A stretch of DNA of 64,000 nt from Lentimicrobiaceae bacterium (GTDB lineage Bacteria > Bacteroidota > Bacteroidia > Bacteroidales > JAGONC01), in contig JAGONC010000002.1 in the NCBI GenBank assembly GCA_017993235.1, forward strand, positions 44,683 to 108,682. Direction: 5' to 3'. Of this stretch, positions 44,035 through 61,186 are shown piece by piece. A program made the position numbers and the translations under genes. Under the pieces are notes generated by a model, which saw nothing but the letters and a program-made list of their open reading frames with translations, searched no databases and had not been told where the DNA came from. The stretch's first letter is position 1; every line of letters begins with the position of its first letter.

Positions 44035-44196
44035 ATGAAAAAATCCGGCACCAAACGTCCTCACAATCCAGATCTTAAGCCCCTTACACCCGCAAAATCC
44101 TAAAATCTCTGGATCTACGGACTGGTCATATTTCTTTTCGGTCTGGTCCTTTACGGGAACACCTATCGGAACAAATACTCCCTTGATGATCATCTG
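44035..44196 (+). pseudogene. Orphaned 5' segment of the GT-C/TPR gene, cut off by an in-frame TAA at 44101-44103
   Basis: The sequence reads ATG..MKKSGTKRPHNPDLKPLTPAKS-TAA-NLWIYGLVIFLFGLVLYGNTYRNKYSLDDHL and runs in frame into ORF 44197-46035. The segment after the stop encodes the first transmembrane helix and the D-D motif loop. Confidence 0.7.
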
Positions 44197-46035
44197 GTGA
44201 CGTACCCGAATGAACAGATCGCACAGGGATTAAAGGCAATTCCCGAAATCCTCACCTCGCGTTATGCTCAGGAAGAACAATTGACCTATGGTTATCGCCC
44301 GCTGGTCAAGATCACGTATGCGGTTGAATATGCCATCTGGGGATTCAAGCCAGGCCGTTCCCATATCTTCAATGCACTCTTCTATGCATTGACCGGACTT
44401 CTTCTTTTCCGGCTGCTGAAAAAACTGTTCAAAGATCATACGCCGGTCTTTCCCTTTCTCATCACCCTGTTATATCTTGCCCACCCCATACACACGGAGG
44501 TCGTGGCCAGCTTAAAGAACCGGGATGAACTGCTGGGCTTTCTTTTCAACATCCTGACGCTCCTCATGATCCTGCGTTTTACCGAAACAAGAAAAGTCCG
44601 TTTCATCCTGCTGAGCGTATTGATGTTCATTCTGGTACTGTTATCCAAACCCACAGCGGCGATCTTTTTCATCATCTTTCCCCTGGCCCTTTATTTCTTC
44701 ACAGACGTTAAGACAAAGCCCCTGCTTTATTCAGCTCTGTCGTTCTTGGGGCTTGTGATTCTGTTTCTTGTGTTCACCCGATTCATTCTCCCCGAAAACG
44801 TCAGACCGGTTCAGTATTACGAAAATCCGCTATTCTTTGAGAAAAACATCTGGCTAAGGATCGGGACGGGATTTTCCATTCTTCTGTTCTATCTCCGTAT
44901 GCTCCTTTTTCCGCATCCTCTGCGTTTCTACTATGGCTACGACATGATCCCCGTGGTCAATCTGGCGAATGGGTGGGTCATCCTGAGTATCGTGATCCAT
45001 CTGGCATTATTCATCTATGCATTGTATACGTTCAGGCGGAAACATATCCTCTCCTTTGCGATCCTGTATTATCTCCTGACGATGGCCATGTATTCCAATT
45101 TTATCCTGCCTTCACCCGGGATCGTCGCCGAACGGTACCTGTATGTTTCTTCCCTTGGATTCAGCATCGCATTGGTCTACCTTATTTTCAGGGTGTTTCG
45201 AAACTCTCCTGTCCCGGATGATCCTCCAAAAGCATCGCTTGCAGGGATCCTGGTTACCTGCCTGATCATCCTGATCCCCTATTCCGTTCATACCTTCAAC
45301 AGGAATAAGGACTGGAAGAATTACCTTACCCTTTATGAAAGCGATATCCCTTACCTTGAGCGGTCAGTCAAGGCTAATATGCTGTATGCCAGTTTGTTGA
45401 CAAGGGATGTCACCGAAACGATGGATATGGAGGAGCAGACGAAATGGATAGGGCTGATCAAAAAACATTATGATCAGGCATTAAAGGTCTATCCTGACAA
45501 TTTTGAAATCCTGAACAATTACGGTTCTTTTTATGCCTATACGCTGGGAGAGCCCGATAAGGCAATTCCATACCTGGTCAGGGCGGCCCGGCTTCAGCCG
45601 GAAAGACCCGAGCCGTACTTCAATCTGGGTTATACTTATAAAATGAAGGGAGATACAGTGAATGCCATTGCCAGTCTGCGGACCGCCAGCAGGCTGGAGC
45701 CAGCCAACGTAAACATCAAGTCAGAGCTGGCGAACCTTTATTTCGACGCCGATTCGCTAGCGGATGCCATAGCCTTGAATGAAGAGATCATCCGGCTGAA
45801 CCCTGCCCTATCCCTTCCGTATGTCAATCTGGGCAATTACCGGGCGAGTTTGGGCGATACGGTTCAGGCCATCCCCTACTGGGAGAAAGCGGTTTCCATC
45901 CAGCCTGAATACCGCCTGTGCATGATGATCAGCTGGTACTATCTTCACCAGCTCGACTCGGCAAGGACCTGGCAGTACTACAACATGGCACAGCGGGTAA
46001 AACCACGGATGATCAGAGAAGAAATGAAACGATAA
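44197..46035 (+). CDS. Polytopic membrane GT-C-like (PMT/ArnT/TMTC-type) domain fused to C-terminal TPR repeats
   Basis: The sequence ..YSLDDHL..YGYRPLVKITYAVEYAIWGF..SHIFNALFYAL.. follows the TMTC/PMT_2 loop pattern. About 9 further hydrophobic helices and at least 5 TPR units follow (YFNLGYTYKMKGDTVNAIASLRTASRLEPAN and others). As called, the ORF starts at a GTG and lacks TM1. Confidence 0.7.
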   Translation: MTYPNEQIAQGLKAIPEILTSRYAQEEQLTYGYRPLVKITYAVEYAIWGFKPGRSHIFNALFYALTGLLLFRLLKKLFKDHTPVFPFLITLLYLAHPIHTEVVASLKNRDELLGFLFNILTLLMILRFTETRKVRFILLSVLMFILVLLSKPTAAIFFIIFPLALYFFTDVKTKPLLYSALSFLGLVILFLVFTRFILPENVRPVQYYENPLFFEKNIWLRIGTGFSILLFYLRMLLFPHPLRFYYGYDMIPVVNLANGWVILSIVIHLALFIYALYTFRRKHILSFAILYYLLTMAMYSNFILPSPGIVAERYLYVSSLGFSIALVYLIFRVFRNSPVPDDPPKASLAGILVTCLIILIPYSVHTFNRNKDWKNYLTLYESDIPYLERSVKANMLYASLLTRDVTETMDMEEQTKWIGLIKKHYDQALKVYPDNFEILNNYGSFYAYTLGEPDKAIPYLVRAARLQPERPEPYFNLGYTYKMKGDTVNAIASLRTASRLEPANVNIKSELANLYFDADSLADAIALNEEIIRLNPALSLPYVNLGNYRASLGDTVQAIPYWEKAVSIQPEYRLCMMISWYYLHQLDSARTWQYYNMAQRVKPRMIREEMKR

Positions 46036-46044
46036 TTTGCGATC

Positions 46045-47751
46045 ATGAAAGCGGGGTATGATGACAGAAGAACGGTTCCGGACCTGTTGATCAAGGTAGT
46101 GGAGGTCTATCCGCATAAAGGGATTGGATTTGTTCAGGCAGATGGACGGATAAAATTCATGACGTATCAGGAGCTCTTATCCCGGGCTTCAGCATTATTA
46201 GGAAACCTGCAGGCCAGCGGTCTGGCCCCCGGTGATAAGGTGATGATCGTAATGATCAGGAATGTAGAAATCGTTTCTGTGCTCTGGGCTTGTTTTTTGG
46301 GTGGATTTATTCCCACGATACTTCAGCCCCCCTTGTCGTTCACGGAATTCAATCAACCTGCACAAAAAATTGACAATGTATTCCGGACTTTGCAAAATCC
46401 AAAGATAATCCTCTCGGCAGATCTGTATGGCAGTTTTCAGTCGGATGTCATCCCCGCGGCAAGCCTGATCAATGCAGAAGAATTAAAGAATCAAACGGAG
46501 GAATTTGTTTGGACCAAACCAAAGGAATCAGATATTGCTTTCATTCAGTTTTCCTCGGGAAGTACAGGGGATCCAAAAGGGATCATCCTGACGCATAAGA
46601 ACATCCTGACCAATATCGCTGCGATTGGTGCCGGCCTTGACTTCCATAATACTGATGTGTTCACCAACTGGATGCCGCTGTACCATGATATGGGGCTGTT
46701 TGGGTACCACATTTGTCCTATTTTTTCATTGAGTAATCAGTATCTCATTGATCCTGTAGATTTTGTAAAAAAACCAAGCCTATGGCTGGATGTCATGGAT
46801 GAAGTACGATGTACCATTACCGGATGCCCAAATTTCGGTCAGGCGCTGCTTTTAAGGTACTTAAAAAACAGGGAAGTCAATCCATGGGATCTTTCTTCTA
46901 TAAAAGGAATAGTAAATGGTGCAGAACCCATTTCCCCCAGAATAATGAATGGGTTCCTGGATAGTTTATCCGGGTACGGATTAAGAAAAGAATCTATGAT
47001 GCCGGCCTATGGAATGGCTGAAGCGACTCTGGCCATCACTTTCTCTGAATTATTGAAGGCACCTGTCATAACAACATTCAACCGAACCCTACTTCAGAAG
47101 GAGGGTAAAGCTGTTCTGGAAAAAGAGGATACGCATGACATGATCGAACTGGTGAGTGTCGGAAAACCGCTCAATGATATTGAGATGAGAATCGTCAGCG
47201 AAAGAGGGCATCCACTGGGAGAGGGTTTTGAAGGGCATATCCAGATACGGGGTTCGGGAATTACTTCAGGATACTATAATAATCCTGCAGAAACCAGGAA
47301 TTCGTTCAGCAATACCTTTTTAAAAACCGGAGATAAAGGTTTTATTTTCGATGATAATCTTTATATCACAGGAAGGATCAAAGATATCATTTTTGTCCGT
47401 GGGAAGAATTTATATGCCCATGATCTTGAAAATCTGGCCATTAAACATTCCGACATTCCTTATGGCAAAGTGATCATTGCAGGTTTATTTGATCCCAAAA
47501 AAGGGCAGGACCAGATCCTGCTGTTCCTGGTAGGTTCACCCAACAAGTCAACCTGCAATACATTCCTCAGTCTTCACCAGTTTTTCAGGGACACGTATGG
47601 AGTGACCATCAATATTTTTATTCCGATACGTTCCAACCAGGTGCCCAAGACCAGCAGCGGTAAAATTCAGCGTCATAAGCTGGTTGCCAGTTATCAGAAC
47701 GGGGAGTTTGACGGAGCGATCGCGGAGATGGCGAAGCTGATGAAGGGATAA
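46045..47751 (+). CDS. Fatty acyl-AMP ligase (FAAL-type adenylating enzyme)
   Basis: The motifs are FIQFSSGSTGDPKGIILTHKNILTN, WMPLYHDMGLFGY (FAAL-typical), YGMAEATLA, TGDKGF..LYITGRIKDIIFVRGKN and TSSGKIQRHKL. Confidence 0.85.
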   Translation: MKAGYDDRRTVPDLLIKVVEVYPHKGIGFVQADGRIKFMTYQELLSRASALLGNLQASGLAPGDKVMIVMIRNVEIVSVLWACFLGGFIPTILQPPLSFTEFNQPAQKIDNVFRTLQNPKIILSADLYGSFQSDVIPAASLINAEELKNQTEEFVWTKPKESDIAFIQFSSGSTGDPKGIILTHKNILTNIAAIGAGLDFHNTDVFTNWMPLYHDMGLFGYHICPIFSLSNQYLIDPVDFVKKPSLWLDVMDEVRCTITGCPNFGQALLLRYLKNREVNPWDLSSIKGIVNGAEPISPRIMNGFLDSLSGYGLRKESMMPAYGMAEATLAITFSELLKAPVITTFNRTLLQKEGKAVLEKEDTHDMIELVSVGKPLNDIEMRIVSERGHPLGEGFEGHIQIRGSGITSGYYNNPAETRNSFSNTFLKTGDKGFIFDDNLYITGRIKDIIFVRGKNLYAHDLENLAIKHSDIPYGKVIIAGLFDPKKGQDQILLFLVGSPNKSTCNTFLSLHQFFRDTYGVTINIFIPIRSNQVPKTSSGKIQRHKLVASYQNGEFDGAIAEMAKLMKG

Positions 47752-47948: not shown

Positions 47949-48182
47949 ATGACCATCGAGGAATTTATCGAGAAAATTGAAGTTGAATTCGAGGACCTGG
48001 AACCCGGTAAATTAAAGCCCGCCAGCAATTTCCGCGAAGTATTCGAATGGAACTCCATCAACGCCCTGATCCTGATTGCGCTGGTCAAGACAGACTACGA
48101 TGTGGTGATCAATGCGGAAGATATCGCGCGATCGAAAACCGTAAATGATCTCTATACGATCATCGAACAAAGGATTACTTAA
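47949..48182 (+). CDS. Stand-alone acyl/peptidyl carrier protein (77 aa)
   Basis: This is a four-helix-sized acidic protein. The candidate phosphopantetheine site is FEWNSINALILIALV (Ser in the D/N-S-I/L context), followed by TVNDLYTIIE. Confidence 0.8.
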   Translation: MTIEEFIEKIEVEFEDLEPGKLKPASNFREVFEWNSINALILIALVKTDYDVVINAEDIARSKTVNDLYTIIEQRIT

Positions 48183-48183
48183 T

Positions 48184-48312
48184 AAATCCAAAATTCCAAA
48201 ATCCAAATTCCAGACAAATTCCAACCATCAAATTCCAAGCCTCCTCCGAAATGAGCTTTGGGATTTGGGTATTGTAATTTATTTGGAATTTGGATCTTGG
48301 GATTTAGGATTT
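48184..48312. repeat. ~130-bp imperfect palindrome built from AATTCCA/AAATCCA words; likely bidirectional terminator
   Basis: The left arm AAATCCAAAATTCCAAAATCCAAATTCCAGACAAATTCCAACC.. (48184-48240) faces the right arm ..TTTGGAATTTGGATCTTGGGATTTAGGATTT (48256-48312). It fills the gap between two convergent genes exactly. Confidence 0.8.
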
Positions 48313-50347
48313 AATGAATGAGTTTGCTGGCTCTATCAGCCAGTTCGAGTATAGTTATTTTCTCGAAAAAAAGATACGGTGGGAAATTGATCCCGAATTG
48401 CTGTAGAAAAGCATTCTGTAGCTGAACAGCCTTCATGGAATTCAAACCGTAAACCGTAAGCGGCTTGTCTGGATCAATTTGCTCAAACGGTACTTTCAGC
48501 TGACCGTGGATCCAAGCCAGTAACCAGGACTGTATAGAAACAATTTCATCTGATGGCACAGATATTTTCCCGGTCTGTTGTGATTCATCCAGCTTCGATT
48601 CACCAACCACGTCCAGCGTATGATTGAGAAAAGCTGCCTTGCAGGCTCGGCGCTGTATCTTGCCGCTGGAGGTCTTGAGGATGCTGGCGGTGCGGAGCAA
48701 CTGAACGGCATACACCTCCTGTTCCAGTTCCTCCCCCACCTGCTGGCGGATGGCATCACAGACCTCTGCGACATCCAGATCCCGGATGGAGGTCCGCTCT
48801 ACCTCTACCACAATCACGAGTCTCTCTTCTCCGTCAAGATCAACGGAAAAAGCTGCGCTTGCGTTGGGCCGCAGCGCAGGGTGACTGTTCTCGGCAAGAT
48901 ATTCAATATCCTGCGGATAGTAATTCCTACCCCTTAAGATGATCAGATCCTTCAACCTTCCCGTAACGTACAACTCACCTTCGTAAATGAAACCTAGATC
49001 GCCTGTCCGGAGGAAAGGACCCTCACCGGTGTCGGCTGTAAAGGCATGAAAGGTTCCGGCTGTCTCTTCTGATTTATTCCAGTATCCCTGAGCGACAATG
49101 GAACCAGATACCCATATCTCACCGATCTCATCCTCCCGGCAACAATGGAGTGACTCAGGATTGACAATGAGCATCCTTGTATCGATCCATGGCTTCCCGA
49201 CAGAAACCTGACAAGCAGCCCTGACATCCTTCTCCCCCCTGATGACAACCCTGTGCTTCTCCAGAGCATCCTTGTCAACATAAAGGTAGACAGGCTTTTC
49301 GGATACTCTGCCACCAGAAAGGATCAATGTTGCTTCTGCCATTCCATAGGTGGGATGAAATTTTTCAGGGAGGAATCCGTAAGGTTTGAAACGTTCCGTA
49401 AAACATTCAAGCGTGTCTTTCCGTACTGTTTCGGCCCCATTGTACAGGGTCCTCAGCGCAATGAGATCAAGTCCCTGGCAATCCTCATCCGTCGTTTTGG
49501 TAGCACAAAGATCGTAGGCGAAATTGGGAGCGCCCCCGAGAGCTGCTCCATACCGGGAGATAGCCCATAACCATCTGACCGGCTTTTGAATGAATAAAAC
49601 CGGTGGCATTAAAATACCTGTATAACCCGCATAGATCGCTTCAATAACCCCAAAAATAAGGCCCATGTCGTGATACACTGGCAACCAGTGGACACTTCTT
49701 GTATCCGGGGTCAGTTCATAGCATTGGCGCAGAAACTCCAGGTTCCGCATCAGGTTTCGGTGACTGACCATGACACCTTTTGGGCTTGCTGTCGAACCTG
49801 AGGTATACTGCAGAAAAGCCAGATCATCCGGTCTGATTTTATAGCCGAAATCATTACCCGTAAATGATTCCCGGTCAACAGATACCCAGAGCAGTGATCG
49901 CAGTTCTTGAACATCCCTGAAGTTCTTCTCAAACGATTCACGTATCTCATTGATCGTAAGGCATAGCTGGGGATTGCAATCATTGACGATGGATATGATC
50001 CGGCTGAAGGAACGATTTTTTCGGGGAGGATAGGCAGGAACAGCGTAAATACCCGCATAAAAACAGGCGAACAGGGTCTTGACAAACTCCAGCCCCGGAG
50101 GAAAAAGCAGCAGGGCTCTTTCCCCTGATTGAATTCCAAGGCTCCTGATGACATGAGTGATCTCCCATGCCTGATCGTAAAGCTGTTTATAGGTAATCCT
50201 TTCTTCATCAGATTCACCGTCCTTTAAAAAAATAAACGCGGCTTTATCCGGTGTGTTCTCCGCTCTCAGCTTCAGAATATCACATAGGGTAAAGCCATAC
50301 GTATCCTCTTCCGTGATCGTACCCAACAAAAAATTTTTCAGTCCCAT
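48311..50347 (-). CDS. FAAL-type adenylating enzyme fused to a C-terminal carrier (PP-binding) domain
   Basis: The motifs are AFLQYTSGSTASPKGVMVSHRNLMRN, WLPVYHDMGLIFG, YGMAEATL, TGDLGF..LYVTGRLKDLIILRGRNYYPQDIE and TSSGKIQRRACK. The carrier domain reads VYGLNSMKAVQLQN. I call the start at MGLKNF (ATG at 50345-50347), not at 50500. Confidence 0.85.
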   Translation of the reverse strand: MGLKNFLLGTITEEDTYGFTLCDILKLRAENTPDKAAFIFLKDGESDEERITYKQLYDQAWEITHVIRSLGIQSGERALLLFPPGLEFVKTLFACFYAGIYAVPAYPPRKNRSFSRIISIVNDCNPQLCLTINEIRESFEKNFRDVQELRSLLWVSVDRESFTGNDFGYKIRPDDLAFLQYTSGSTASPKGVMVSHRNLMRNLEFLRQCYELTPDTRSVHWLPVYHDMGLIFGVIEAIYAGYTGILMPPVLFIQKPVRWLWAISRYGAALGGAPNFAYDLCATKTTDEDCQGLDLIALRTLYNGAETVRKDTLECFTERFKPYGFLPEKFHPTYGMAEATLILSGGRVSEKPVYLYVDKDALEKHRVVIRGEKDVRAACQVSVGKPWIDTRMLIVNPESLHCCREDEIGEIWVSGSIVAQGYWNKSEETAGTFHAFTADTGEGPFLRTGDLGFIYEGELYVTGRLKDLIILRGRNYYPQDIEYLAENSHPALRPNASAAFSVDLDGEERLVIVVEVERTSIRDLDVAEVCDAIRQQVGEELEQEVYAVQLLRTASILKTSSGKIQRRACKAAFLNHTLDVVGESKLDESQQTGKISVPSDEIVSIQSWLLAWIHGQLKVPFEQIDPDKPLTVYGLNSMKAVQLQNAFLQQFGINFPPYLFFEKITILELADRASKLIH

Positions 50348-50426: not shown

Positions 50427-51515
50427 ATGTCCCTCTTCACCATCCCCAACATCCGCATCGCTGGCATGGCAGCAGCTGTTCCGGCAAAAGAGGTTTCCAA
50501 CCTTGATTACCGTTGGATCTCCGTCAAAGAGCGAAATCAGGTCATCAGGACGATTGGAGTGGAAAAACGCCGGATCGCCGAAAAAGGTCAAACAACGGGC
50601 GATCTGTGTTTTGCGGCTGCCGACAGGCTTCTGAATGATCTGCAATGGAACCGGAACGATATCCAGGTAATCGTTTTTGTTTCCCAGTCAATGGATTATA
50701 TTATCCCTGCCACCGCCCCCATTTTGCAGGATCGCCTATCCTTACCCAAAACGTGCATGGCATTCGATATTAACCTGGGATGTTCGGGATTTGTATACGG
50801 ACTGTCGGTCATCGGCAGCCTGATGAGCCAGGCCGGTTTCCAGAAAGCACTATTGCTGGCGGGAGATCTTTCCAATGTTACTTCCTCCTACCGGGATAAA
50901 AGCACGTATCCCCTGTTCGGGGATGCCGGTACGGCCACTGCACTGGAATTTGACCGGAACGCGGTTCCCATGACGTTTAACCTCCAGACCGATGGTTCAG
51001 GCTATCAAGCTATTATGATTCAGGATGGGGGAGTGCGTAACTGGGTAAGCAAAAAATCATTCAACTACCATAAATACGGGAAAGGCATATACAGGAATAA
51101 CCTTCAGATCGCGTTGAATGGGATCGAAGTGTTCAACTTTTCCCTTAGGGAAGTAGTCCCTAATATCAAAGCCACACTCGAATACGCAGGGAAAACACTG
51201 AATGATTTTGATTACCTGGTCTTCCACCAGGCTAACCGGCTGATCAATGAGACGATACGAAAAATGCTGAAAGCAGATAAAGAGAAGGTTCCCTATTCCA
51301 TCCATAAGTATGGAAATACCAGCAGCGCATCCGTACCCCTGACCATCGTTTCCGAATTACAGGATAAGATCCGGAAAGAACATGTCCGTTTCCTGCTATC
51401 AGCATTCGGAATCGGATTATCCTGGGGCACGGTGTTGCTGGAGACGGATGGGGTGGTGTGCCCGGGGGTACTGCAAGTCAGCAGTCAGCAGTCAACAGTC
51501 AGCAGTCAACAGTAA
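50427..51515 (+). CDS. 3-oxoacyl-ACP synthase III (FabH-like thiolase fold)
   Basis: The Cys-His-Asn triad contexts are NLGCSGFVYGL, VFHQANRLINE and KYGNTSSASVPL. I call the start at MSLFTIPN. The last 13 codons (QVSSQQSTVSSQQ) are encoded by the GTCAGCA heptamer array. Confidence 0.85.
   Translation: MSLFTIPNIRIAGMAAAVPAKEVSNLDYRWISVKERNQVIRTIGVEKRRIAEKGQTTGDLCFAAADRLLNDLQWNRNDIQVIVFVSQSMDYIIPATAPILQDRLSLPKTCMAFDINLGCSGFVYGLSVIGSLMSQAGFQKALLLAGDLSNVTSSYRDKSTYPLFGDAGTATALEFDRNAVPMTFNLQTDGSGYQAIMIQDGGVRNWVSKKSFNYHKYGKGIYRNNLQIALNGIEVFNFSLREVVPNIKATLEYAGKTLNDFDYLVFHQANRLINETIRKMLKADKEKVPYSIHKYGNTSSASVPLTIVSELQDKIRKEHVRFLLSAFGIGLSWGTVLLETDGVVCPGVLQVSSQQSTVSSQQ
51477..51511 (+). repeat. Heptamer array of the GTCAGCA/GTCAACA family (x5) inside the 3' end of the KAS III ORF
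   Basis: The array reads GTCAGCA GTCAGCA GTCAACA GTCAGCA GTCAACA and is followed by GTAATGA containing the stop. Confidence 0.9.
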
Positions 51516-51528: not shown

Positions 51529-51624
51529 CCATGAATGACGCGAGGCGCGAAGCGCCGAGCAAATAACCACGAATCACCATGAATGACGCGAGGCGCGAAG
51601 CGCCGAGCAAATAACCACGAATTA
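51529..51624 (+). repeat. Tandem duplication of a 48-bp cassette (47/48 identical)
   Basis: CCATGAATGACGCGAGGCGCGAAGCGCCGAGCAAATAACCACGAAT(C/T)A occurs twice. Each copy holds the hairpin GCGA-GGCGC-GAA-GCGCC-GAGC (51540-51560 and 51588-51608). Confidence 0.95.
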
Positions 51625-51630
51625 CCCCAC

Positions 51631-53378: not shown

Positions 53379-54068
53379 ATGGAGCTGGTAAAATATGGTA
53401 TAAAACTCCATCGCCTCAGGCAAGAAGATATTGAACTGGTCCGCAAATGGCGAAACTCCCCGCTGATCCGGCAGTATATGGAATTCAGGGATGAGATCAC
53501 CCCCGAAATGCAAAAGACCTGGTTCCATTCCATCAACAATACCGAAAACTATTATTTCATTATTGAATATCAGCAGAAAAAAATCGGACTGATCAACTCA
53601 AGCCATGTTGACTGGACCACCCGAAGCTCGGAAGGAGGTATTTTCCTCTGGGATGTGCAGTACTACGAAACCTTCGTGCCTGTCTGGGCCTCCCTCTGCC
53701 TGCTGGAAACATCCTATCATATCCTGGGAGCCGGTAATTCTGAAGTCAGGATCCTCAGGGATAATGAGCGGGCGCAAAAACTGGTCCTTAATCTTGGTTA
53801 TGAACTCCAGCCCGGACAGGAGGATCTTTATAATCAGCATTATATCCTAACCCCCGAACGTTTTTTCCGGCACTCCCGCCGGTTGATCAAAGCAGCTTCC
53901 CTGCTCACAGGGCAAAAAGAAGCAACACATACCCTCTTCTTTGACAGGGAAGATATCCTGTCAGGACTGGCGGATTTTATTGACGATAAAATTGATAGGA
54001 AAAGGGTTGCCGCTTTCACTGAATCCGTTGATAACCGATTCTATGAATTCATGATCAGAGAGGATTGA
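53379..54068 (+). CDS. GNAT N-acetyltransferase, PseH-like (amino-sugar N-acetylation)
   Basis: The N-terminus IKLHRLRQEDIELVRKWRNSPLIRQYM..TPEMQKTWFHSI..NYYFIIEYQQKKIGLIN follows the PseH/RimL-type pattern as I recall it. Confidence 0.65.
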   Translation: MELVKYGIKLHRLRQEDIELVRKWRNSPLIRQYMEFRDEITPEMQKTWFHSINNTENYYFIIEYQQKKIGLINSSHVDWTTRSSEGGIFLWDVQYYETFVPVWASLCLLETSYHILGAGNSEVRILRDNERAQKLVLNLGYELQPGQEDLYNQHYILTPERFFRHSRRLIKAASLLTGQKEATHTLFFDREDILSGLADFIDDKIDRKRVAAFTESVDNRFYEFMIRED

Positions 54069-55128
54069 CCTTTCGTTTATTGAATTTCCAGTATATTTTC
54101 AGAAAGATCCCCAGGGATCGGTTCATGAAGTTTCGTAAAGCAAAAGGCAAATGATCTCCCAGGAGAATCAGCCTGTACATGACGGAGGCATAGATCAGTG
54201 TCGGAAGGATCCAGAGGTATAATCCGGGGGTGAAACGGGTATACTGCCTTTTATACCCTGCTTTCTCAGCAGCTTTCCCTGCTACAAGATCGGCAATCCG
54301 AATCTCACGGGGGCTCATTTCTGTCTTCCAGCGATCGATCCTTTGCGCGGAGATGGGATTGAACAGGCTCTGATGCACCTGTGCGATTTCCTCCGCATTC
54401 GAATAGGCTTTTTCAACTGCGGATTTTTTTTCGTAAAAAGACAGTACGGAAGCATCATAGGGGATCCCAAGAAACTGGCATATTTCCCTGAAATGATGCT
54501 CCGGAGCCGCTACCAGGTCCTCATATCTGATCGAAAAAATCTGGTCCGGAATGCGTTCCTTCAGTTTCCACATCCTCTTCAGGGCAAATTTCCACCGGAA
54601 AACCACCAGGGGTACGATGGGAACTTCAAAATTGACCCTGATCAGCGACAGATAATTATCCCTGTAATCCCGGGTAATGTGAATGATTTTCGCCCCGGGG
54701 AAAAGTTGATGGATCCGCTGTACATAAAGCGAATATCCGGGATTCTTATCCCCAATCCATTGGATCTCTTCCTTTTCAAAGACAGAATTGTAGGATAACC
54801 AGACCTGCATGACCATCGTCTGAAAAGTCGACTTCCCTTCCTTTTCCAAAAGCCGCTGGTAAAGATGCTCCCTGCCGGTCAGCCACTTATCAAAGTACCG
54901 TTGCCTGTAAACATCATCGCAGAATTCCCGGATTTTTGACGGATCCCACTCTGTCACGTTCCGGTATTTCCGGTAGAGATTCATAATGAACGGACTCTCA
55001 GGCGGGACCAGCACCCGGGGATGCGCTTCAAAAAGAAAACGCAGCAGAGTCGTGCCGGAACGGGGCCTGCCAATGATAAAAAAGAAGGAAGGAGATGATG
55101 CCTGATGGCATCCTACCGTTTCATCCAT
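54055..55128 (-). CDS. PAPS-dependent sulfotransferase (paralog 1)
   Basis: The 5'-PSB loop is FFFIIGRPRSGTTLL and the 3'-PB motif is ITRDYRDNYLS. A hydrophobic C-terminal segment is present (GLYLWILPTLIYASVMYRLILLG). Confidence 0.8.
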   Translation of the reverse strand: MDETVGCHQASSPSFFFIIGRPRSGTTLLRFLFEAHPRVLVPPESPFIMNLYRKYRNVTEWDPSKIREFCDDVYRQRYFDKWLTGREHLYQRLLEKEGKSTFQTMVMQVWLSYNSVFEKEEIQWIGDKNPGYSLYVQRIHQLFPGAKIIHITRDYRDNYLSLIRVNFEVPIVPLVVFRWKFALKRMWKLKERIPDQIFSIRYEDLVAAPEHHFREICQFLGIPYDASVLSFYEKKSAVEKAYSNAEEIAQVHQSLFNPISAQRIDRWKTEMSPREIRIADLVAGKAAEKAGYKRQYTRFTPGLYLWILPTLIYASVMYRLILLGDHLPFALRNFMNRSLGIFLKIYWKFNKRKVNPL

Positions 55129-56411
55129 TTTCCGAGTTCTTTCAGGAATATAAAATCACCTTTCTGAAATGCAAGGATCTTTCGAACAGGCATATGGCTA
55201 ATCCTGGAATATACAAAAATGTAAGCTATCGTTCCCAGTGTATAGCTTACGTTGGTCGCCCATACGGCTCCGAGTGCACCCTGTTCAGGTATCCACCACA
55301 GATTCAGCAGGATGTTCACAATAAGGGCAGGTAAAAACACATAAAGGGTAATGTATGGTTTCCCGATACCGGCGATCTGACTGCTTAGGATCCTGAAAAT
55401 GCTGATGAACAGAATTCCCGGTAGGATCATCTGAATGATCTGTACGCTGGGATGAAAGCTTTCTCCCCAGATCACCGGGATGAGCCAGGGTGATAGCATG
55501 GCCAGCACAACCGATACAATCAGGCCCGCTATAAAGGAGATCCTTACCAGCCGGCCGGTGGTCTGATTGATCAGGTGTTGATCCTTTGCGTTGGCCGTAC
55601 GGCTCATCAAGACAATGCCGATCGCCAGGGGAAGCTGCCAGAGCTTTTCAGCGATCGAAACACCCAGCGAATAAAATCCAACCTCCTCCCTGGTCGAAAG
55701 CTCCTGAAGCAGCAGAATATCGATCCGGTAATTTAACTGGATGACCATAAAGGAAAGGGCAAACAGAAATCCCATCGATACCAGGTCACGGATGATCACC
55801 GATTTGTACCTCAGCCGAAAACCATACTCCTTACCCAGGTTGATCCCTGCCCAGAGGGTGATCAGAAAATTGGCCACCAGCAGCGACAGCAATGCACCGG
55901 CGACCTTCCAGTCGAGGATCCACACGAATACCACTATGGCGACCAGGTGAATTAACTCGGAGAACCAGTTGATGAAGTTGGCGTGACCGATCTGCTCCTT
56001 CCCGATAAAAATCCCTCCAAAATAGGCCATGGCCAGACGGAACGGGATCGACAACATCACCAGGATAATATAGGTATGGGTAAAGGACTCATCACCCAGA
56101 AAGATGAATCCGGCTCCCGTGACCAGGATCCCAAGCAGGGAGGTAAAGACCAGGATCATCAGGATACTGCCGATGACTTCAGCCTGTTCATAATGCTTCC
56201 TGCCAAGATAATAGATGGATGAGCCCCTGATCCCGAGTTGCGTGAAACTGACAACGATCAGCGGGATCACCAGGATGGCAGAGTAAATACCAAATCCTTC
56301 AGGACCCAGTCGCCGGGAAAGGATGGCACTGGCCAGTAACCCGGCCACAATCGTAAATACATTGCTGCTCAGAACACCGGCCACATCTTTTAGGAAACTT
56401 CGCTGGGTCAT
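55113..56411 (-). CDS. Wzx-like polysaccharide/oligosaccharide flippase (MOP superfamily)
   Basis: The 432-aa protein has ~12 predicted hydrophobic helices, with the N-terminal pattern ..SNVFTIVAGLLASAILSRRLGPEGFGIYS.. typical of polysaccharide biosynthesis (Wzx) proteins. Confidence 0.75.
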   Translation of the reverse strand: MTQRSFLKDVAGVLSSNVFTIVAGLLASAILSRRLGPEGFGIYSAILVIPLIVVSFTQLGIRGSSIYYLGRKHYEQAEVIGSILMILVFTSLLGILVTGAGFIFLGDESFTHTYIILVMLSIPFRLAMAYFGGIFIGKEQIGHANFINWFSELIHLVAIVVFVWILDWKVAGALLSLLVANFLITLWAGINLGKEYGFRLRYKSVIIRDLVSMGFLFALSFMVIQLNYRIDILLLQELSTREEVGFYSLGVSIAEKLWQLPLAIGIVLMSRTANAKDQHLINQTTGRLVRISFIAGLIVSVVLAMLSPWLIPVIWGESFHPSVQIIQMILPGILFISIFRILSSQIAGIGKPYITLYVFLPALIVNILLNLWWIPEQGALGAVWATNVSYTLGTIAYIFVYSRISHMPVRKILAFQKGDFIFLKELGKWMKR

Positions 56412-56502: not shown

Positions 56503-57954
56503 ATGTTATTCAACTCGCTTGAATACCTGATCTTCCTTCCGGCAGTGGTTGTCATTTACTTCGTCCTCCCGGCCAGAAGACGCTGGATGTTACTTCTTGC
56601 TGCCAGTTATTTTTTCTATTTATCCAACAGGATCGAATATGGCATCCTGATCCTGATCACCACCCTGGTTGATTATTTTGTTGCCCTGAAAATCCATCAG
56701 ACCGCCAGCGTAAAAGGAAAGAAAGGATACCTGGCGATCAGCCTGATTGCCAACCTGGGTATGCTGGCCGGATTCAAGTACCTGGATTTTTTCTCTGAAA
56801 GCGTTAATCTTTTACTCCATTCATTCCATATTCAGGGCGGGTTGCCTGTCTTCGGGATTCTGTTGCCTGTCGGTATCTCCTTCTTTATCTTCAAATCACT
56901 GAGCTATACGATCGACGTATACCGGGGACTGAGAACTCCCGAAAAACATCTGGGATTCTATGCGTTGTACGTTTCCTTCTTCCCCCAGCTCATTTCGGGT
57001 CCTATCGACCGTTCATCCAGCCTGTTACCCCAGTTGCACCATCCCAGGGAATTCAATACCGGATGGCTGATCAGCGGATTGAAGCTGATGCTCTGGGGTT
57101 TCTTTAAAAAGGTGGTCATCGCCGACCGGCTGGGATTGTACGTTGATGAGATTTATAACAATCCCGAGGAATATACCGGATTGTCGGTCATCCTGGCCTC
57201 GGTCCTTTTTGCCTTTCAGCTTTACAGCGACTTTTCAGGATATACGGATATTGCCCGGGGTTCTGCGCGCATCATGGGTTACGACCTGATGATCAACTTC
57301 AACCGCCCCATGATCGCCAAATCACTCCGGGATTTCTGGAACCGCTGGCATATATCGCTTACGACCTGGTTCCGCGATTATGTTCTTTATTCCCTGCCCT
57401 ATATCAGGAACAAAAAGGTCAGTTTCGGCAGACTCTATTTCAACCTGATCATCACTTACCTGCTCATGGGACTCTGGCACGGTGCCGACTGGAACTTCGT
57501 CATCTTTGGATTCCTCAATGGTGTGTTCCTTGTCATAGAGACCACCACGGAAAAACTACGGGAGCGGTTCCTTGACCTGACTGGGATCAGCCGTGCAAGG
57601 TTTTTTAAAAACCTGAACGGAAACATCATTACCCTTTCTCTCATCATTTTTACACTGATCTTTTTCAGAGCCGACAGCCTGGATGAAAGCTTCCTAATTA
57701 TTTCCAATTCATTTGATTTCAGCAACTTAAGTCTATCAATACGAAAAATCCTCCATGATAATGAACTGATATTTGGCATCCTGGCGCTTGTCGTAATGCT
57801 TGTTGCAGAACATATACATGAAAAACACGACCTGGTAAGGATCATCGCATCCAGACCCATCGTGATCCGATGGTCGGTTTATATTGGATTTATCTTTTTT
57901 ATTCTCATTTTTTGGGTACAACAAAAGCAGGAATTCATCTATTTTCAATTCTGA
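56503..57954 (+). CDS. MBOAT-family membrane O-acyltransferase (AlgI/DltB/PatA-like)
   Basis: The N-terminus MLFNSLEYLIFLP, the sequence FWNRWHISLTTWFRDYV (conserved catalytic His context) and the polytopic 483-aa architecture fit MBOAT. Confidence 0.9.
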   Translation: MLFNSLEYLIFLPAVVVIYFVLPARRRWMLLLAASYFFYLSNRIEYGILILITTLVDYFVALKIHQTASVKGKKGYLAISLIANLGMLAGFKYLDFFSESVNLLLHSFHIQGGLPVFGILLPVGISFFIFKSLSYTIDVYRGLRTPEKHLGFYALYVSFFPQLISGPIDRSSSLLPQLHHPREFNTGWLISGLKLMLWGFFKKVVIADRLGLYVDEIYNNPEEYTGLSVILASVLFAFQLYSDFSGYTDIARGSARIMGYDLMINFNRPMIAKSLRDFWNRWHISLTTWFRDYVLYSLPYIRNKKVSFGRLYFNLIITYLLMGLWHGADWNFVIFGFLNGVFLVIETTTEKLRERFLDLTGISRARFFKNLNGNIITLSLIIFTLIFFRADSLDESFLIISNSFDFSNLSLSIRKILHDNELIFGILALVVMLVAEHIHEKHDLVRIIASRPIVIRWSVYIGFIFFILIFWVQQKQEFIYFQF

Positions 57955-57960
57955 CAGGCA

Positions 57961-58959
57961 ATGACCCGAAAAACGATTCACAGATTCCTCCTGTTCCTGA
58001 TCCTGATGGTCATCGTCAATTTCATGCTTGACTGGGCATTTAAGGCATTCTCCGTCCACAACATCATCAACGAGACCATGGACCGGCAATTTGCCGGTTA
58101 CCGGGGGACGATGAAGTACCTGACCATGGGGAATTCGCATAACTGCATCAACACACATATCCTGGAAAACAGCTTCAACTATGGTTCTCCCAGCGAGAAT
58201 TTCATCCAGTCTTACTACAAACTCAAGCACATCCTGGAGGAAACAGGCCAGAGACCCCAGAACCTGATCCTGCAGGCCGATGTCTCTTCATTCGGCCCCA
58301 AAATAGCAAACCGCTTCGAGTACAATTCCTATTGGGCCCACTTCATTAACTACTTTGAGCTGGCCAGGATCACGGGAAACAGGGATGTACTGAGTCAATG
58401 GCTGGAGGGCAGATTCATTTCCTACGCAGGTAACTACAAGGACATTCAGCTTTCCATCTTCTACAGGATCAAGATCAAAACGGTGGAAATTTACAATGGC
58501 TACAGGCCTCACAGGGATTACCGCAACTTTGCCAATGAACCGAACCGGCAGAGGATGGCATGGAACAAAGCAAAACTGATCCTTTCTTCGGAAACTTATC
58601 TGGATTCGTCCATTGCCGTTTATTTTGAGAAGATCCTGCAGCTTTGCCAGGAAAATCAGATCAGGGTGCTGATGGTACGCATCCCGATGTCAAAAGAATT
58701 CTATGAAGAGGAATCCCGGATCGTTCCGGTGGATACCCTGTACGAAGCCGTCGAAAACATTGCATGCCGTTATTCTGTATATGATGGTCTGCTCGACTAC
58801 CATGATCTCTTCTATGACCATCCTGAGTACTTTTTCGATCCTGACCACCTGAACATCAAAGGGGCCGATCTTTTCACAGCGCGGCTGGTAAGGGCTCTCG
58901 GTGAGGTTCCTTCAGCGGGATTTTCGGAAGATGCCGGAGAAATTCCTGGCAATCCATAG
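57961..58959 (+). CDS. Membrane-anchored SGNH-like partner of the MBOAT (DltD/AlgJ/PatB-type)
   Basis: A single N-terminal transmembrane helix is present. MGNSH (block I-like Ser) lies near the N-terminus and FFDPDHLNIKG (D-x-x-H, block V) near the C-terminus. The gene follows the MBOAT gene after 6 nt. The assignment rests on motif layout only. Confidence 0.55.
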   Translation: MTRKTIHRFLLFLILMVIVNFMLDWAFKAFSVHNIINETMDRQFAGYRGTMKYLTMGNSHNCINTHILENSFNYGSPSENFIQSYYKLKHILEETGQRPQNLILQADVSSFGPKIANRFEYNSYWAHFINYFELARITGNRDVLSQWLEGRFISYAGNYKDIQLSIFYRIKIKTVEIYNGYRPHRDYRNFANEPNRQRMAWNKAKLILSSETYLDSSIAVYFEKILQLCQENQIRVLMVRIPMSKEFYEEESRIVPVDTLYEAVENIACRYSVYDGLLDYHDLFYDHPEYFFDPDHLNIKGADLFTARLVRALGEVPSAGFSEDAGEIPGNP

Positions 58960-59958
58960 GGGACCTTTGTTTAAAAGTTTTCCCCTTAACCGGTAAGGCA
59001 ACCGGTCGACCAGATGCGTCATCAGGTAAAGCATTTTTGCATAACTTATTCCCGGCAAGGCCAGCAAGCCAACCCAGGCATGAAAACCGCTGAACTTCCT
59101 TTCATATCCGGCCATTTCCGCATATTTCCCAGCAACCAGGTCGGCTATCCTGACCTGCCGTTCACTCAGGGATCGCTTCCATCGGCCTATTCTGCTTGTA
59201 TTTACCGGATTGAATAAGCTTTGATGATGTCTGCGGAGAACGTCGTGCGGGTATCTCTGCTCAGCCTCTTCCTTTTTTTTATAGAAATCAAAAACCTCCG
59301 GAACAAAGGGTATGGAAAGAAATTCACAAAGATCCCGCAGGTGATGGTCAGGAGAGGTCACCAGGTCTTCATAACGGACGAAATAAAACGATCCCGGGTA
59401 CCTTTTACTGGCCTGAAGAGCTTTTTTATAGAAATATTTCCATTTATAGACCACAAGGGATACCACGGGGAGCTCAAAATCTACATTTCTGACCGATTCA
59501 TAGTTGTCCCGGTAATCCCTGAGGAGGTAGATAAACCGGGCATCTGGGAAGAGTTTTTTCAGGCGGTGGGTATAGAGGGTATACCCGTGGTTTTTATCCC
59601 CGATCAACCGGATGGTCTCCTTGGGATAGAATGAAATATAATTCAGGTATACCACCGTGCAGACCGCCACATAGGATGTTACTCCCTGACATTTTCTGAG
59701 GTCTGCCTTCAACCTGTCGTGATCGACATTCCATGTACTGAATTGCCATTGTTCCAGCAGATCAGCATAAAACCGGTCAAGGATTTCAGTCGTCCACATC
59801 TTGATAGAGCCATAATGTGGGTAAAGGTTCAGCATGAACTGGCATTCCCAGGGGATCTGAACATCAGGGTGAGCGTCGAACAAAGCCCTGAGGAGCGTAG
59901 TCCCTGTGCGGGGTCTGCCGATGATAAAAAAAAACGGGATCGATGACCGTTGCTCCAT
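58912..59958 (-). CDS. PAPS-dependent sulfotransferase (paralog 2)
   Basis: FFFIIGRPRTGTTLL and LLRDYRDNYES are present. The protein is collinear with paralog 1 through QSLFNP..RIGRWK..IADLVAGK. The ATG at 59956-59958 is preferred to the TTG at 59979. The 3' end overlaps the convergent SGNH gene by 48 nt. Confidence 0.8.
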   Translation of the reverse strand: MEQRSSIPFFFIIGRPRTGTTLLRALFDAHPDVQIPWECQFMLNLYPHYGSIKMWTTEILDRFYADLLEQWQFSTWNVDHDRLKADLRKCQGVTSYVAVCTVVYLNYISFYPKETIRLIGDKNHGYTLYTHRLKKLFPDARFIYLLRDYRDNYESVRNVDFELPVVSLVVYKWKYFYKKALQASKRYPGSFYFVRYEDLVTSPDHHLRDLCEFLSIPFVPEVFDFYKKKEEAEQRYPHDVLRRHHQSLFNPVNTSRIGRWKRSLSERQVRIADLVAGKYAEMAGYERKFSGFHAWVGLLALPGISYAKMLYLMTHLVDRLPYRLRGKLLNKGPLWIARNFSGIFRKSR

Positions 59959-60052
59959 CACAGTGGGAAAGAGAAGCAAATATACCCTATTTCATCGTAC
60001 AATCTTCAATTATTCTTATTTTCGCAGGGTCAACACGTTATGAAAGTGAGCC

Positions 60053-61186
60053 ATGGAAGTTCTGTTCAATAAGCCCTATTTAACTGGCAGGGAGTCGCAT
60101 CATCTGGCCCGGGTTGCCCTGTCAGGAAAGTTGTCGGGTAACGGTGAGTATACGCAGATGTGCCAGGATTTTTTCCGGCAACGGTTTGGATTCGGTAAAG
60201 TCCTGCTGACAACCTCCTGCTCCGACGCACTCGAAATGGCTGCCATCCTCTGTGACATTCACCCCGGCGATGAGGTCATCATGCCTTCCTATTCTTTCGT
60301 ATCCACAGCCAATGCATTCCTCCTCAGGGGTGCACACATCCGGTTTGCTGACACCTGCACCGATTACCCGAACATTGATCCCGTATCCATTGAAAAACTG
60401 ATCACTCCCCGCACAAGGGTGATCGTTGTGGTTCATTATGCAGGCGTTGCCTGCGACATGGAATCGGTTATGGCACTTGCCCGTCAGCATGACCTGCTCG
60501 TGGTGGAGGATGCGGCACATGCTCATGACAGCTTTTTCAAGAAGATGCCCCTGGGCAGTATCGGTCACTTCGGTACCTTTTCATTCCACGAAACGAAAAA
60601 CATCATCAGCGGCGAAGGAGGAATGCTGGTGGTGAACGATAAAAAGTTTGAAAAAAGAGCAGAGATCATCTGGGAAAAAGGAACCGACAGAGCAGCTTTC
60701 TCAAGGGGAGAGGTCAGCAAATATGGCTGGAAAGACATCGGATCCTCCTTTTTGCCTTCGGAGATCATCGCAGCAATGCTCTATGCACAGCTTGAAAAAT
60801 ACGATGAGATCCAGGCGAAAAGAAAAAATATTTGGAACGGCTATTACAAAAGGCTCAAACCGCTGGCAGAAGCCAGCCTGATCCGTTTGCCCATCCTTCC
60901 TCAATGGGCTACGGTCAACGGAAGTATGTTCTTTTTGATCACCCGGGACCCTGAGGAGCGTGACGCATTGCTATCGCACCTGAAGAGTGAAGGTGTCTAT
61001 GCTGTCTTTCACTACCTGCCGCTGCACTCCAGCGACTTTTTCCGTCCGCTCCATGATGGCCGTATCCTTCAGCATACGGACCATTTTGCCAGCTGCATCA
61101 TCCGCCTGCCGTTCTATAACGAACTGACCGATTCCGAGATCGACTTTGTAACCTCCGCAATCAAAAAATTCTATACGATTCTTTAA
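60053..61186 (+). CDS. DegT/DnrJ/EryC1-family sugar aminotransferase, WecE-like (dTDP-4-amino-4,6-dideoxyhexose)
   Basis: The N-terminus NKPYLTGRESHHLARVALSGKLSGNGEYTQMCQDFFRQRFG parallels WecE/RffA. The PLP lysine context is FSFHETKNIISGEGGMLV. Confidence 0.85.
   Translation: MEVLFNKPYLTGRESHHLARVALSGKLSGNGEYTQMCQDFFRQRFGFGKVLLTTSCSDALEMAAILCDIHPGDEVIMPSYSFVSTANAFLLRGAHIRFADTCTDYPNIDPVSIEKLITPRTRVIVVVHYAGVACDMESVMALARQHDLLVVEDAAHAHDSFFKKMPLGSIGHFGTFSFHETKNIISGEGGMLVVNDKKFEKRAEIIWEKGTDRAAFSRGEVSKYGWKDIGSSFLPSEIIAAMLYAQLEKYDEIQAKRKNIWNGYYKRLKPLAEASLIRLPILPQWATVNGSMFFLITRDPEERDALLSHLKSEGVYAVFHYLPLHSSDFFRPLHDGRILQHTDHFASCIIRLPFYNELTDSEIDFVTSAIKKFYTIL

Follow-up and report, generated by a model that had tools for sequence, protein, structure and literature searches.

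Three-component systems of extracytoplasmic glycosylation, such as the Gtr systems (GtrA/GtrB/GtrC) and a Citrobacter youngae system with a polyprenyl-phosphoribose synthase, a MATE flippase and a GT-C enzyme of family GT136 for pentofuranose (PMC11127046), share a design in which a synthase makes a lipid-phosphate sugar, a flippase turns it over and a GT-C glycosyltransferase acts after export, and they have no polymerase. A similar succession of aminotransferase, N-acylation, ArnC-type GT2 glycosyltransferase, flipping and GT-C transfer makes up the Arn system for L-Ara4N on lipid A, and streptococcal pairs of a GtrB/PgfS-type GT2 and a GT-C enzyme (GtrB/PgtC2 and PgfS/PgfM) O-glycosylate extracytoplasmic proteins (PMC12041528). 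The eukaryotic protein O-mannosyltransferases TMTC1-4 combine a polytopic N-terminal GT-C part with C-terminal tetratricopeptide repeats (TPRs), and full-length prokaryotic homologues of these have been noted as not yet well characterised (PMC7801869).

Here we describe a 17-kb cluster of 14 genes between 44 and 61 kb of a stretch of 64,000 nucleotides (hereafter, the window) from contig JAGONC010000002.1 of a Lentimicrobiaceae bacterium. Judged by its gene content, the cluster is a three-component extracytoplasmic glycosylation system in predicted mechanism, and its distinctive parts are a bacterial TMTC homologue as terminal transferase, a probable dTDP-derived amino-dideoxyhexose cargo, private acyl and sulfate tailoring, and a relay built around a membrane-bound O-acyltransferase (MBOAT). 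Very probably, a 4-amino-4,6-dideoxy sugar is loaded on a lipid carrier, flipped and then attached on the far side of the cytoplasmic membrane; an N-(3-hydroxyacyl) group on this sugar is probable and a sulfate group possible. With moderate confidence, we read the whole as two coupled modules for envelope decoration that are conserved in Bacteroidota and work without polymerisation machinery.

An earlier note made from the window's sequence had proposed amination, N-acetylation, loading onto undecaprenyl phosphate (Und-P) by a GT2, flipping and GT-C transfer without polymer formation. The core of this outline holds, yet it ignored the acyl, sulfate and MBOAT genes as well as a stop codon in the GT-C gene. 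Five of the 14 genes had been named correctly and nine co-conserved ones had been omitted, i.e., two fatty-acyl-AMP ligases (FAALs), a 77-residue acyl carrier protein (ACP77), a beta-ketoacyl-ACP synthase III (KASIII), a ketoreductase, two sulfotransferases, the MBOAT and its SGNH-like partner.

Gene content and predicted route

Each open reading frame (ORF) between 44 and 61 kb could be assigned, and all cluster genes except the one for the GT-C align over their full length with orthologues. The cluster reads as follows, with the start of FAAL2 refined by orthologue comparison:

44035..46035, + strand: TMTC-like GT-C glycosyltransferase with C-terminal TPR domain (PMT_2 and TPR models, GT-C fold), interrupted by TAA at codon 23
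44101..44103, + strand: in-frame TAA (nonsense codon) in the GT-C gene, seen in the sequence; Lys in homologues
46045..47751, + strand: FAAL1, stand-alone fatty-acyl-AMP ligase (AMP-binding 174 bits; best NCBIfam FAAL subfamily PRK09192, 340 bits)
47949..48182, + strand: ACP77, acyl carrier protein of 77 aa (PP-binding 22.6 bits, gathering cutoff 20.8)
48311..50347, - strand: FAAL2 fused to a carrier-protein domain (AMP-binding 220 bits, DIP2-like C-terminal domain, PP-binding 43 bits)
50427..51515, + strand: FabH-type KASIII (ACP_syn_III, ACP_syn_III_C; PRK09352 228 bits)
51583..52365, + strand: short-chain dehydrogenase/reductase (SDR), FabG-like ketoreductase (adh_short_C2 141 bits, KR domain)
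52454..53377, + strand: GT2 of the GtrB/ArnC clade, predicted polyprenyl-phosphate glycosyltransferase (full-length GtrB/ArnC matches)
53379..54068, + strand: PseH/FdhC-like GNAT, predicted N-acyltransferase (Acetyltransf_3 match; PseH model TIGR03585 61 bits, cutoff 93)
54055..55128, - strand: ST1, predicted cytoplasmic PAPS (3'-phosphoadenosine-5'-phosphosulfate) sulfotransferase (Sulfotransfer_3 121 bits; PAPS loop GRPRSGTT; no signal peptide)
55113..56411, - strand: putative flippase, assigned at the level of the MOP/Wzx family (Polysacc_synt 76 bits; also MurJ and MatE; about 11 hydrophobic segments)
56503..57954, + strand: DltB-like MBOAT, membrane acyltransferase (MBOAT 68 bits; DltB model TIGR04091 165 bits, cutoff 375)
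57961..58959, + strand: membrane-anchored SGNH/DltD-like MBOAT partner of the LB_356/DUF1574 family (GNSH and DPDH motifs; N-terminal transmembrane (TM) helix)
58912..59979, - strand: ST2, predicted PAPS sulfotransferase (Sulfotransfer_3 113 bits)
60053..61186, + strand: WecE-type dTDP-4-keto-6-deoxyhexose 4-aminotransferase (NF008687 521 bits, cutoff 375; TIGR02379 474 bits, cutoff 435)

On the 5' side lie rplU, serS, a gene for a TPR protein and ksgA, and the flanks consist of housekeeping genes or genes of the type IX secretion system (T9SS). Neither the window nor the 7 kb past its end on the parent contig contains a Wzy, a chain-length regulator, Wza/Wzc (OPX) or a priming phosphoglycosyltransferase, which extends the earlier observation that polymerisation, export and priming genes are missing to the adjoining DNA.

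In the first of the two modules, WecE would deliver dTDP-4-amino-4,6-dideoxyhexose and the GNAT would N-acylate this amino sugar, probably with a 3-hydroxyacyl chain that FAAL1 would prime and that KASIII and the ketoreductase would build on ACP77. A hydroxyl of the chain or of the sugar would probably be sulfated by a cytoplasmic PAPS sulfotransferase. The GT2 would transfer the sugar to its presumed acceptor Und-P, the MOP flippase would carry the lipid-linked sugar over the membrane, and the TMTC-like GT-C would move it to an already exported acceptor, be it a protein or a glycan. In the second module, the FAAL2-ACP fusion, the MBOAT, the SGNH-like protein and ST2 would form a Dlt-like relay that takes an acyl group from the carrier protein through the membrane to an extracytoplasmic acceptor, which may be that of the sugar or a different one. 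What the acyl, sulfate and MBOAT genes do is predicted from their sequences and their genomic neighbourhood, in organisms that are all uncultured.

If this route is correct, the cluster would widen the three-component scheme in three directions: dTDP-derived amino-dideoxyhexoses as cargo, tailoring of the sugar by PAPS sulfotransferases and a private line of ACP, KASIII and ketoreductase, and a FAAL-fed MBOAT relay, a link that we did not find described in the searchable literature. The same holds for the locus as such, given that searches on MBOAT/FAAL/sulfotransferase genes in Bacteroidetes, carrier-fed MBOATs in Gram-negatives, O-glycosylation by TPR-containing GT-C enzymes in Bacteroidota and ACP/KASIII genes in O-antigen clusters returned no such description. 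The gene context further predicts the donor sugar for a whole prokaryotic TMTC subfamily, which makes it testable.

Unlike the Gtr and Citrobacter systems, the cluster has a MOP/Wzx flippase in place of GtrA and a TMTC-like GT-C with TPRs in place of GtrC or GT136, its predicted cargo is an amino-dideoxyhexose with its own acyl and sulfate tailoring genes, and an MBOAT module is attached. Compared to Arn, the sugar route is that of a dTDP-hexose instead of a UDP-pentose. We rejected membership of the Arn system, given that WecE scores 198 bits against the ArnB model (cutoff 631) and the GT2 152 bits against the ArnC model (cutoff 529); ArnA, ArnD, ArnE/F and ArnT equivalogs were absent among the cluster proteins. 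The streptococcal systems differ by belonging to Gram-positive hosts, by their simple Glc or GalNAc cargo, and by having no TPR, acyl, sulfate or MBOAT parts. A Wzy-dependent polysaccharide locus was likewise rejected (no Wzy, chain-length regulator or initiating phosphoglycosyltransferase in the window and the following 7 kb), as was an aryl-polyene or flexirubin cluster (no ketosynthase/chain-length factor, dehydratase or MMPL genes).

Sugar and acyl genes and their linkage across relatives

The WecE-like aminotransferase and the ArnC/GtrB type of the GT2, both claimed in the earlier note, are confirmed, the former at the equivalog level with both curated cutoffs passed. The nearest solved relatives of the GT2 are GtrB (5EKP, 5e-41) and ArnC (9HWJ, 8e-40) over residues 5-306, followed by DPMS (3e-15). 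The GtrB and ArnC alignments run through the end of the C-terminal membrane hairpin, while processive synthases match the N-terminal core only, so that the GT2 groups with the former and not with the latter. It carries DDD and GEYL motifs and two hydrophobic C-terminal TM helices. Its family is clear and its substrate is predicted: the protein scores 152 bits against the ArnC model NF007986 (cutoff 529) and 134 bits against PgfS, and because both values are far under the cutoffs, its sugar specificity is not fixed by these matches.

Upstream supply of the sugar could come from outside the cluster, where the earlier note had correctly placed an rfbA/rmlA gene:

23507..24367, + strand: RmlA, glucose-1-phosphate thymidylyltransferase (TIGR01207 477 bits, over cutoff)

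RmlA is a possible precursor supplier from 20 kb away, and the gene after it encodes a polyprenyl diphosphate synthase, not RmlB. The pairing of a WecE equivalog with a GNAT acting after amination recalls the dTDP-Fuc4NAc branch of enterobacterial common antigen (RmlA/RmlB, WecE, WecD). In contrast to that pathway, WecF, WzyE and WzzE are missing here, the sugar would go to a lipid-phosphate GT2, and the acyl donor is probably made within the cluster.

The last point concerns the GNAT, which had been described as a PseH-like N-acetyltransferase. The assignment to the GNAT family stands (Acetyltransf_3 matched, PseH model under its cutoff), but the restriction to acetyl groups is probably too narrow. 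Among solved structures, its relatives are PseH (4.6e-5) and FdhC (7.7e-5); PseH, an N-acetyltransferase, is its best family match. FdhC is reportedly a sugar N-acyltransferase, and it moves 3-hydroxybutanoyl onto a dTDP-amino sugar. A FabH enzyme, a ketoreductase and an ACP constitute the minimal route to a 3-hydroxyacyl thioester. Because these components and a GNAT with kinship to FdhC occur in an invariant KASIII-SDR-GT2-GNAT block, N-(3-hydroxyacyl)ation of the sugar is the favoured, if unproven, prediction.

KASIII retains its catalytic triad of Cys (CSGF), His (FHQAN) and Asn (GNTSS), and the SDR invariably lies between KASIII and the GT2 in the loci compared. ACP77 is encoded in what appears to be an intergenic gap. 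No other gene of the cluster is conserved as consistently: the ACP77 gene is kept at 50-90% identity in all ten related loci that span this region and is present in many metagenome loci as well. Its nearest solved relatives are, weakly, the fatty-acid-synthesis carriers AcpM and AcpP, and it is distinct from the carrier domain of FAAL2, whose best subfamily scores are 429 bits for PRK05850 and 395 bits for FadD32.

To follow the linkage of these genes, about 100 related loci (L001 and so on) were gathered by a scan of genomes, by contig look-ups and by a single metagenome scan, the last of which recovered 80 loci with the GT2 profile; metagenome loci with acyl genes beside the GT2 are called acyl-class below. 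The cluster is widespread in Bacteroidales and Lentimicrobiaceae of anaerobic and sediment metagenomes. Its full order of 14 genes is kept in L001 and L049, whose GT2 proteins are 81-84% identical, as well as in L007 and L009 as far as their sequence reaches, and the order from GT2 to WecE is kept in L002, a contig that starts at the GT2. An order of ACP, KASIII, SDR, GT2 and GNAT is shared by seven loci (L001, L003, L004, L007, L009, L012 and L013) down to ca. 45% identity, and this block with ACP77 holds down to ca. 40-45% identity, including L004 (a metagenome-assembled genome (MAG) of Cytophagaceae), L012, L013, L046, L047 and L052. L014 shows ACP, FAAL2, KASIII and SDR before the fetched locus ends. 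Acyl genes lie directly upstream of the GT2 in 24 of the 80 metagenome loci, and the GNAT follows directly downstream in 14 of the 17 acyl-class loci with room for it.

At the other end of the cluster, the TMTC-like GT-C usually follows ksgA, and FAAL1 comes after the GT-C in seven loci (L001, L007, L011, L013, L023, L028 and L049). The GT-C/TPR gene stays beside the acyl genes even where the ksgA neighbourhood has been lost. L011 has pheS, GT-C, FAAL1, a radical SAM gene and ACP, and L012 has a gyrase-like gene, GT-C, KASIII, ACP, KASIII, SDR, GT2, GNAT, a radical SAM gene, two sulfotransferase genes, Wzx and a third sulfotransferase gene. In L004, whose upstream flank is not visible, the order is GT-C, KASIII, ACP, KASIII, SDR, GT2 and GNAT, with two sulfotransferase genes and a DegT gene further on. 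Ten acyl-class metagenome loci have 7 kb or more of upstream flank, and six of them carry the GT-C on that side.

Supply of the starter unit differs among relatives, which variously use FAAL1, FAAL2-ACP, a second KASIII, and one or two B12-radical SAM genes. Such B12-binding radical SAM genes are found in the cluster beside the ACP in L003, L009, L011, L012, L013 and L016 (one or two each), and the window has none; they suggest C-methylation or another radical change of the acyl chain in those relatives. In the Lentimicrobium genome of L011 (1280-4069) the cluster is split, with GT-C, FAAL1, the radical SAM gene and ACP located 6-9 kb from cysN/cysD/cysC-like genes for PAPS synthesis; an SGNH-like gene fragment and a FAAL2-ACP gene (L015) lie about 250 kb away on the same contig.

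Many relatives of the GT2 (34-53% identity) have no acyl genes nearby. A WecE homologue adjoins 22 of 56 such GT2 genes, and nine of 13 where at least 2 kb are available on both sides. L045 combines a PMT_2 GT-C without TPRs with GT2, a WecD-like GNAT and WecE; L054 has a small EamA-type protein, WecE, GT2, a PglD-like acetyltransferase and a 490-aa protein without Pfam match; and L069 has GT2, a hexapeptide acetyltransferase, WecE and an LPG_synthase_TM protein. Because of these WecE and acetyltransferase neighbours, the GT2 clade is habitually tied to 4-amination and N-acylation of a 6-deoxyhexose, and this coupling of GT2 and WecE is the strongest support for the central idea of the earlier note. 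Compact cassettes of WecE, an N-acetyltransferase and an ArnC-like GT2, sometimes with a small flippase and a PMT_2 GT-C, occur in these three and about 20 other metagenome loci; they look like a decoration system based on Und-P-(N-acetyl-4-amino-4,6-dideoxyhexose). The cluster described here is an elaborated member of this wider and apparently uncharacterised set.

The compact cassettes also lend themselves to a simpler model in which the sugar that Und-P carries across the membrane for transfer is an N-acetylated 4-amino-4,6-dideoxyhexose (Fuc4NAc or Qui4NAc), and the acyl, sulfotransferase and MBOAT genes belong to an unrelated neighbour pathway. Besides the existence of such acyl-free loci, the best family match of the GNAT to the N-acetyltransferase PseH fits this model. 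Nevertheless, we consider it improbable: the acyl genes are interleaved with those for glycosylation (GT-C, FAAL1, ACP, FAAL2, KASIII and SDR, then GT2 and GNAT), and this interleaving is kept to ca. 35-45% identity in differing genomic contexts.

The predicted target of the sulfotransferases is a hydroxyl of either the acyl chain or the sugar. Both ST1 and ST2 have a PAPS loop and neither carries an export signal. Among solved structures, ST1 comes nearest to TPST1 (2e-13) and, at 2.7e-13 over residues 12-277 (53 bits), to the CurM sulfotransferase, which acts on a beta-hydroxyacyl-ACP. With the CurM and olefin-synthase (Ols) sulfotransferase domains they share the Sulfotransfer_3 family and the adjacency to enzymes for a presumed beta-hydroxyacyl-ACP; they differ by standing alone and by resembling tyrosylprotein sulfotransferases equally well. 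A CurM/Ols olefin-forming unit was rejected for lack of a thioesterase and a polyketide synthase module. Similarly, an OleABCD- or olefin-synthase-like route to a hydrocarbon or beta-lactone, with KASIII in the part of OleA, the SDR in that of OleD and the AMP-ligase in that of OleC, and with decarboxylative elimination by way of a sulfotransferase, appears very far-fetched. The enzyme classes are superficially alike and ST1 is related to the CurM/Ols sulfotransferases, but KASIII is far nearer to FabH-type enzymes (4EFI at 4e-64; FabH at 1e-31 to 1e-41) than to OleA (2e-15), there is no OleB or thioesterase, and the acyl genes are tightly tied to sugar genes.

The predicted terminal GT-C transferase and its stop codon

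The earlier note had described a GT-C-like protein with an LDD loop, a YRPL motif and C-terminal TPRs at 44035/44197-46035. All of these features were recovered, together with a PMT_2 match of 32 bits (cutoff 26), a DUF1736 match of 23 bits that stays under its cutoff of 27, and many TPR models covering residues 430-665, but the ORF is not intact. The frame that opens at 44035 is broken by the in-frame TAA at 44101-44103, after which no ATG, GTG or TTG occurs before the GTG at 44197, so that the first TM helix and the LDD loop (ca. 44185-44193, NKYSLDD) lie outside any conventional ORF.

This TAA is also present in the deposited contig JAHZTK010000121.1 (MAG GCA_020047475.1, Bacteroidales bacterium). 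By contrast, the position is a Lys codon (AAA) in P0001, a protein of 666 aa and 99.7% identity from another assembly, and Lys in L001, and the GT-C orthologues in L001 and L004 are uninterrupted. Reassignment of TAA was rejected because it is the most frequent ordinary stop codon in the window. The TAA is a strain-specific nonsense change or a base-calling error, and with the gene interrupted the last step, i.e., the final transfer, is probably lost or strongly reduced in this genome.

In the intact homologue, whose AF2 model has a pLDDT of 88, the membrane domain has a GT-C fold according to structure prediction. A search of PDB sequences with this domain gave no match by sequence or profile, and Foldseek with the full-length model returned TPR proteins only, whereas a model of the TM domain (residues 1-432, pTM 0.84) found GT-C enzymes in ten of its 11 best PDB matches. 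They include STT3A (E 6e-5, TM 0.49), STT3 (TM 0.52), PglB (1e-3), AglB, Pmt4 (TM 0.50/0.45), ALG3 and AftA, with ALG9, DPY19, Pmt1/2, Emb and ArnT lower in the list. The structural resemblance that the earlier note had made a point of checking is thus borne out by the model.

The similarity to TMTC1-4 extends beyond the arrangement of domains to the DD motif of external loop 1 (EL1), YRP, HPIHT and ERxxY and to the weak DUF1736 match (PMC7801869). Among 37 homologues of the GT-C, residues D51-D52, Y87-R88-P89, HPIHTE and E366-R367-x-x-Y370 are invariant or nearly so, with DD (D51, D52), YRP and ERxxY fully invariant; they correspond to TMTC motifs M1 (DD), M2 (YRP) and M7 (ERxxY) and to the HPIHT segment of human TMTC3. 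Motifs M3 (RDE) and M6 (PxP) are approximated. Unlike the eukaryotic enzymes, the protein is bacterial, its DUF1736 match is sub-threshold, the Glu of M4 and the DW of M5 are not kept, and the predicted donor is not dolichyl-P-mannose: instead of a polyprenyl-phosphate-mannose, gene context argues for the product of GT2, WecE and GNAT.

By homology, the TPR domain would be sited in the periplasm. In an ambitious version of the proposed route, the TPRs would recruit proteins of the periplasm or outer membrane, to which the TMTC homologue would link a sulfated N-(hydroxyacyl) amino sugar, and the FAAL/carrier-fed MBOAT/SGNH relay, as a fatty-acyl counterpart of Dlt, would acylate the product further. 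We regard this as unlikely; if true, such a lipid-like sugar would constitute a new lipoglycan post-translational modification or membrane anchor in Bacteroidota.

Conversely, the product might be a free sulfated N-acyl amino-sugar glycolipid, either a membrane lipid or a secreted metabolite, with another role for the TMTC-like protein. Two FAALs, carriers, KASIII, a ketoreductase and CurM-like sulfotransferases follow a natural-product logic, no acceptor is encoded, some acyl-class loci have no GT-C nearby, and the GT-C is dispensable enough to bear a stop codon here. Such a glycolipid nonetheless seems doubtful to us, considering that known members of the GT2's clade glycosylate polyprenyl phosphate, that DD, YRP and ERxxY of the GT-C are invariant in 37 homologues, and that a MOP flippase is present.

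The Lentimicrobiaceae MAG L003 encodes a GT-C of family GT87 (L003:1993-3240), which is not TMTC-like, upstream of its acyl genes; this protein may be an alternative terminal transferase.

The proposed MBOAT module, opposing evidence and the rest of the window

The second of the two proposed modules would resemble DltABCD: it puts an adenylating enzyme and a carrier protein beside an MBOAT, for which DltB is the closest solved structure (6e-29), and beside a putative SGNH-type partner with a membrane anchor. It deviates from Dlt in that the ligase is of the FAAL type instead of the D-alanine ligase DltA, the carrier is fused, the DltD match is weak, the host is Gram-negative, and a sulfotransferase (in relatives also radical SAM enzymes) accompanies the module. 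The SGNH-like protein matches DUF1574 (21.5 bits) and DltD (15 bits) under their cutoffs, has PF27429 LB_356 as its precomputed annotation, and shows no sequence relative in the PDB; LB_356/DUF1574 is a small family almost confined to these bacteria. Its gene is invariably 3' of that for the MBOAT in the loci compared.

An indication of how this module may work comes from L016, where the MBOAT, the SGNH-like gene, an orthologue of FAAL2 (41% identity), an ACP and an orthologue of ST2 (55%) are contiguous, in a locus that also has two radical SAM genes and no glycosylation genes nearby. This stand-alone arrangement suggests a carrier-protein-fed module of the Dlt kind. It also agrees with another view of the cluster, in which the sugar is N-acetylated and the ACP-built chain, possibly sulfated, goes entirely to the MBOAT and SGNH-like proteins, such that the acceptor receives the sugar and a separate fatty- or hydroxy-acyl ester. 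Apart from the self-contained FAAL, ACP, sulfotransferase, MBOAT and SGNH-like unit in L016, the habit of DltB to draw its acyl group from a carrier protein and the presence in L034 of an MBOAT and SGNH-like gene directly after KASIII-SDR-GT2-GNAT would fit. We judge this view to be rather unlikely, as ACP77, KASIII and SDR are joined to GT2 and GNAT also where no MBOAT is visible (L004, L012, L047 and L052) and as ACP77 and the FAAL2 carrier domain are different carriers. Plain O-acetylation by the MBOAT pair in the manner of AlgI/AlgJ is conceivable, too.

Several points weigh against the coupled two-module route that we favour. A gene for the 4,6-dehydratase RmlB was not found anywhere in the window, in line with the earlier note, and we know of no precedent for a dTDP-sugar donor among GtrB/ArnC-type enzymes, which use UDP- and GDP-sugars. 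The GNAT could simply use acetyl-CoA while the ACP/KASIII/SDR chain feeds the MBOAT. At the thresholds used, no more than four acyl-class metagenome loci show sulfotransferases, out of 12 whose downstream sequence reaches 3 kb or more. An MBOAT/SGNH pair without any FAAL occurs in L046, so the link between FAAL and MBOAT is not obligatory. As to the terminal step, the GT-C gene is interrupted in this genome, only the Lys of TMTC motif M4 is kept while its metal-binding Glu is not, and M5 (DW) is replaced by ENPL. Of the ten acyl-class loci whose upstream flank spans 7 kb or more, the remaining four have no recognisable GT-C there, though two large proteins without Pfam match are found in these flanks. 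Since the order on the ksgA side is conserved, part of the GT-C position, and hence of its linkage, could be synteny inherited along with housekeeping genes. Finally, the relatives are all uncultured MAGs or metagenome contigs with no known product or acceptor.

The ksgA-side order of serS, the TPR protein (632 aa), ksgA and the TMTC-like GT-C (39790-46035 in the window; also in L007, L009, L013 and L014) is kept to ca. 42% identity. Elsewhere in the window, a T9SS cargo protein of 3086 aa with CarboxypepD_reg repeats and a MAM domain is encoded at 27401-36661 on the - strand, and L007 has a counterpart of 3398 aa in the same position. A T9SS-tailed endonuclease I, a DUF5689/DUF5017 protein, a TonB-dependent receptor and an EEP-family nuclease are grouped at 10025-17723, which may be a locus for scavenging extracellular nucleic acids. 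A second, short GT2 of 244 aa (9248-9982, - strand), in which no C-terminal membrane helices were noted, adjoins an amidohydrolase and is unrelated to the cluster. The first 8 kb (1-8000) have a G+C content of 0.33-0.41 compared to ca. 0.48 elsewhere in the window and may be acquired DNA; they encode a GNAT (1954-2892), a polysaccharide deacetylase (2905-3915) and a Fib_succ_major-domain protein (3928-5562).

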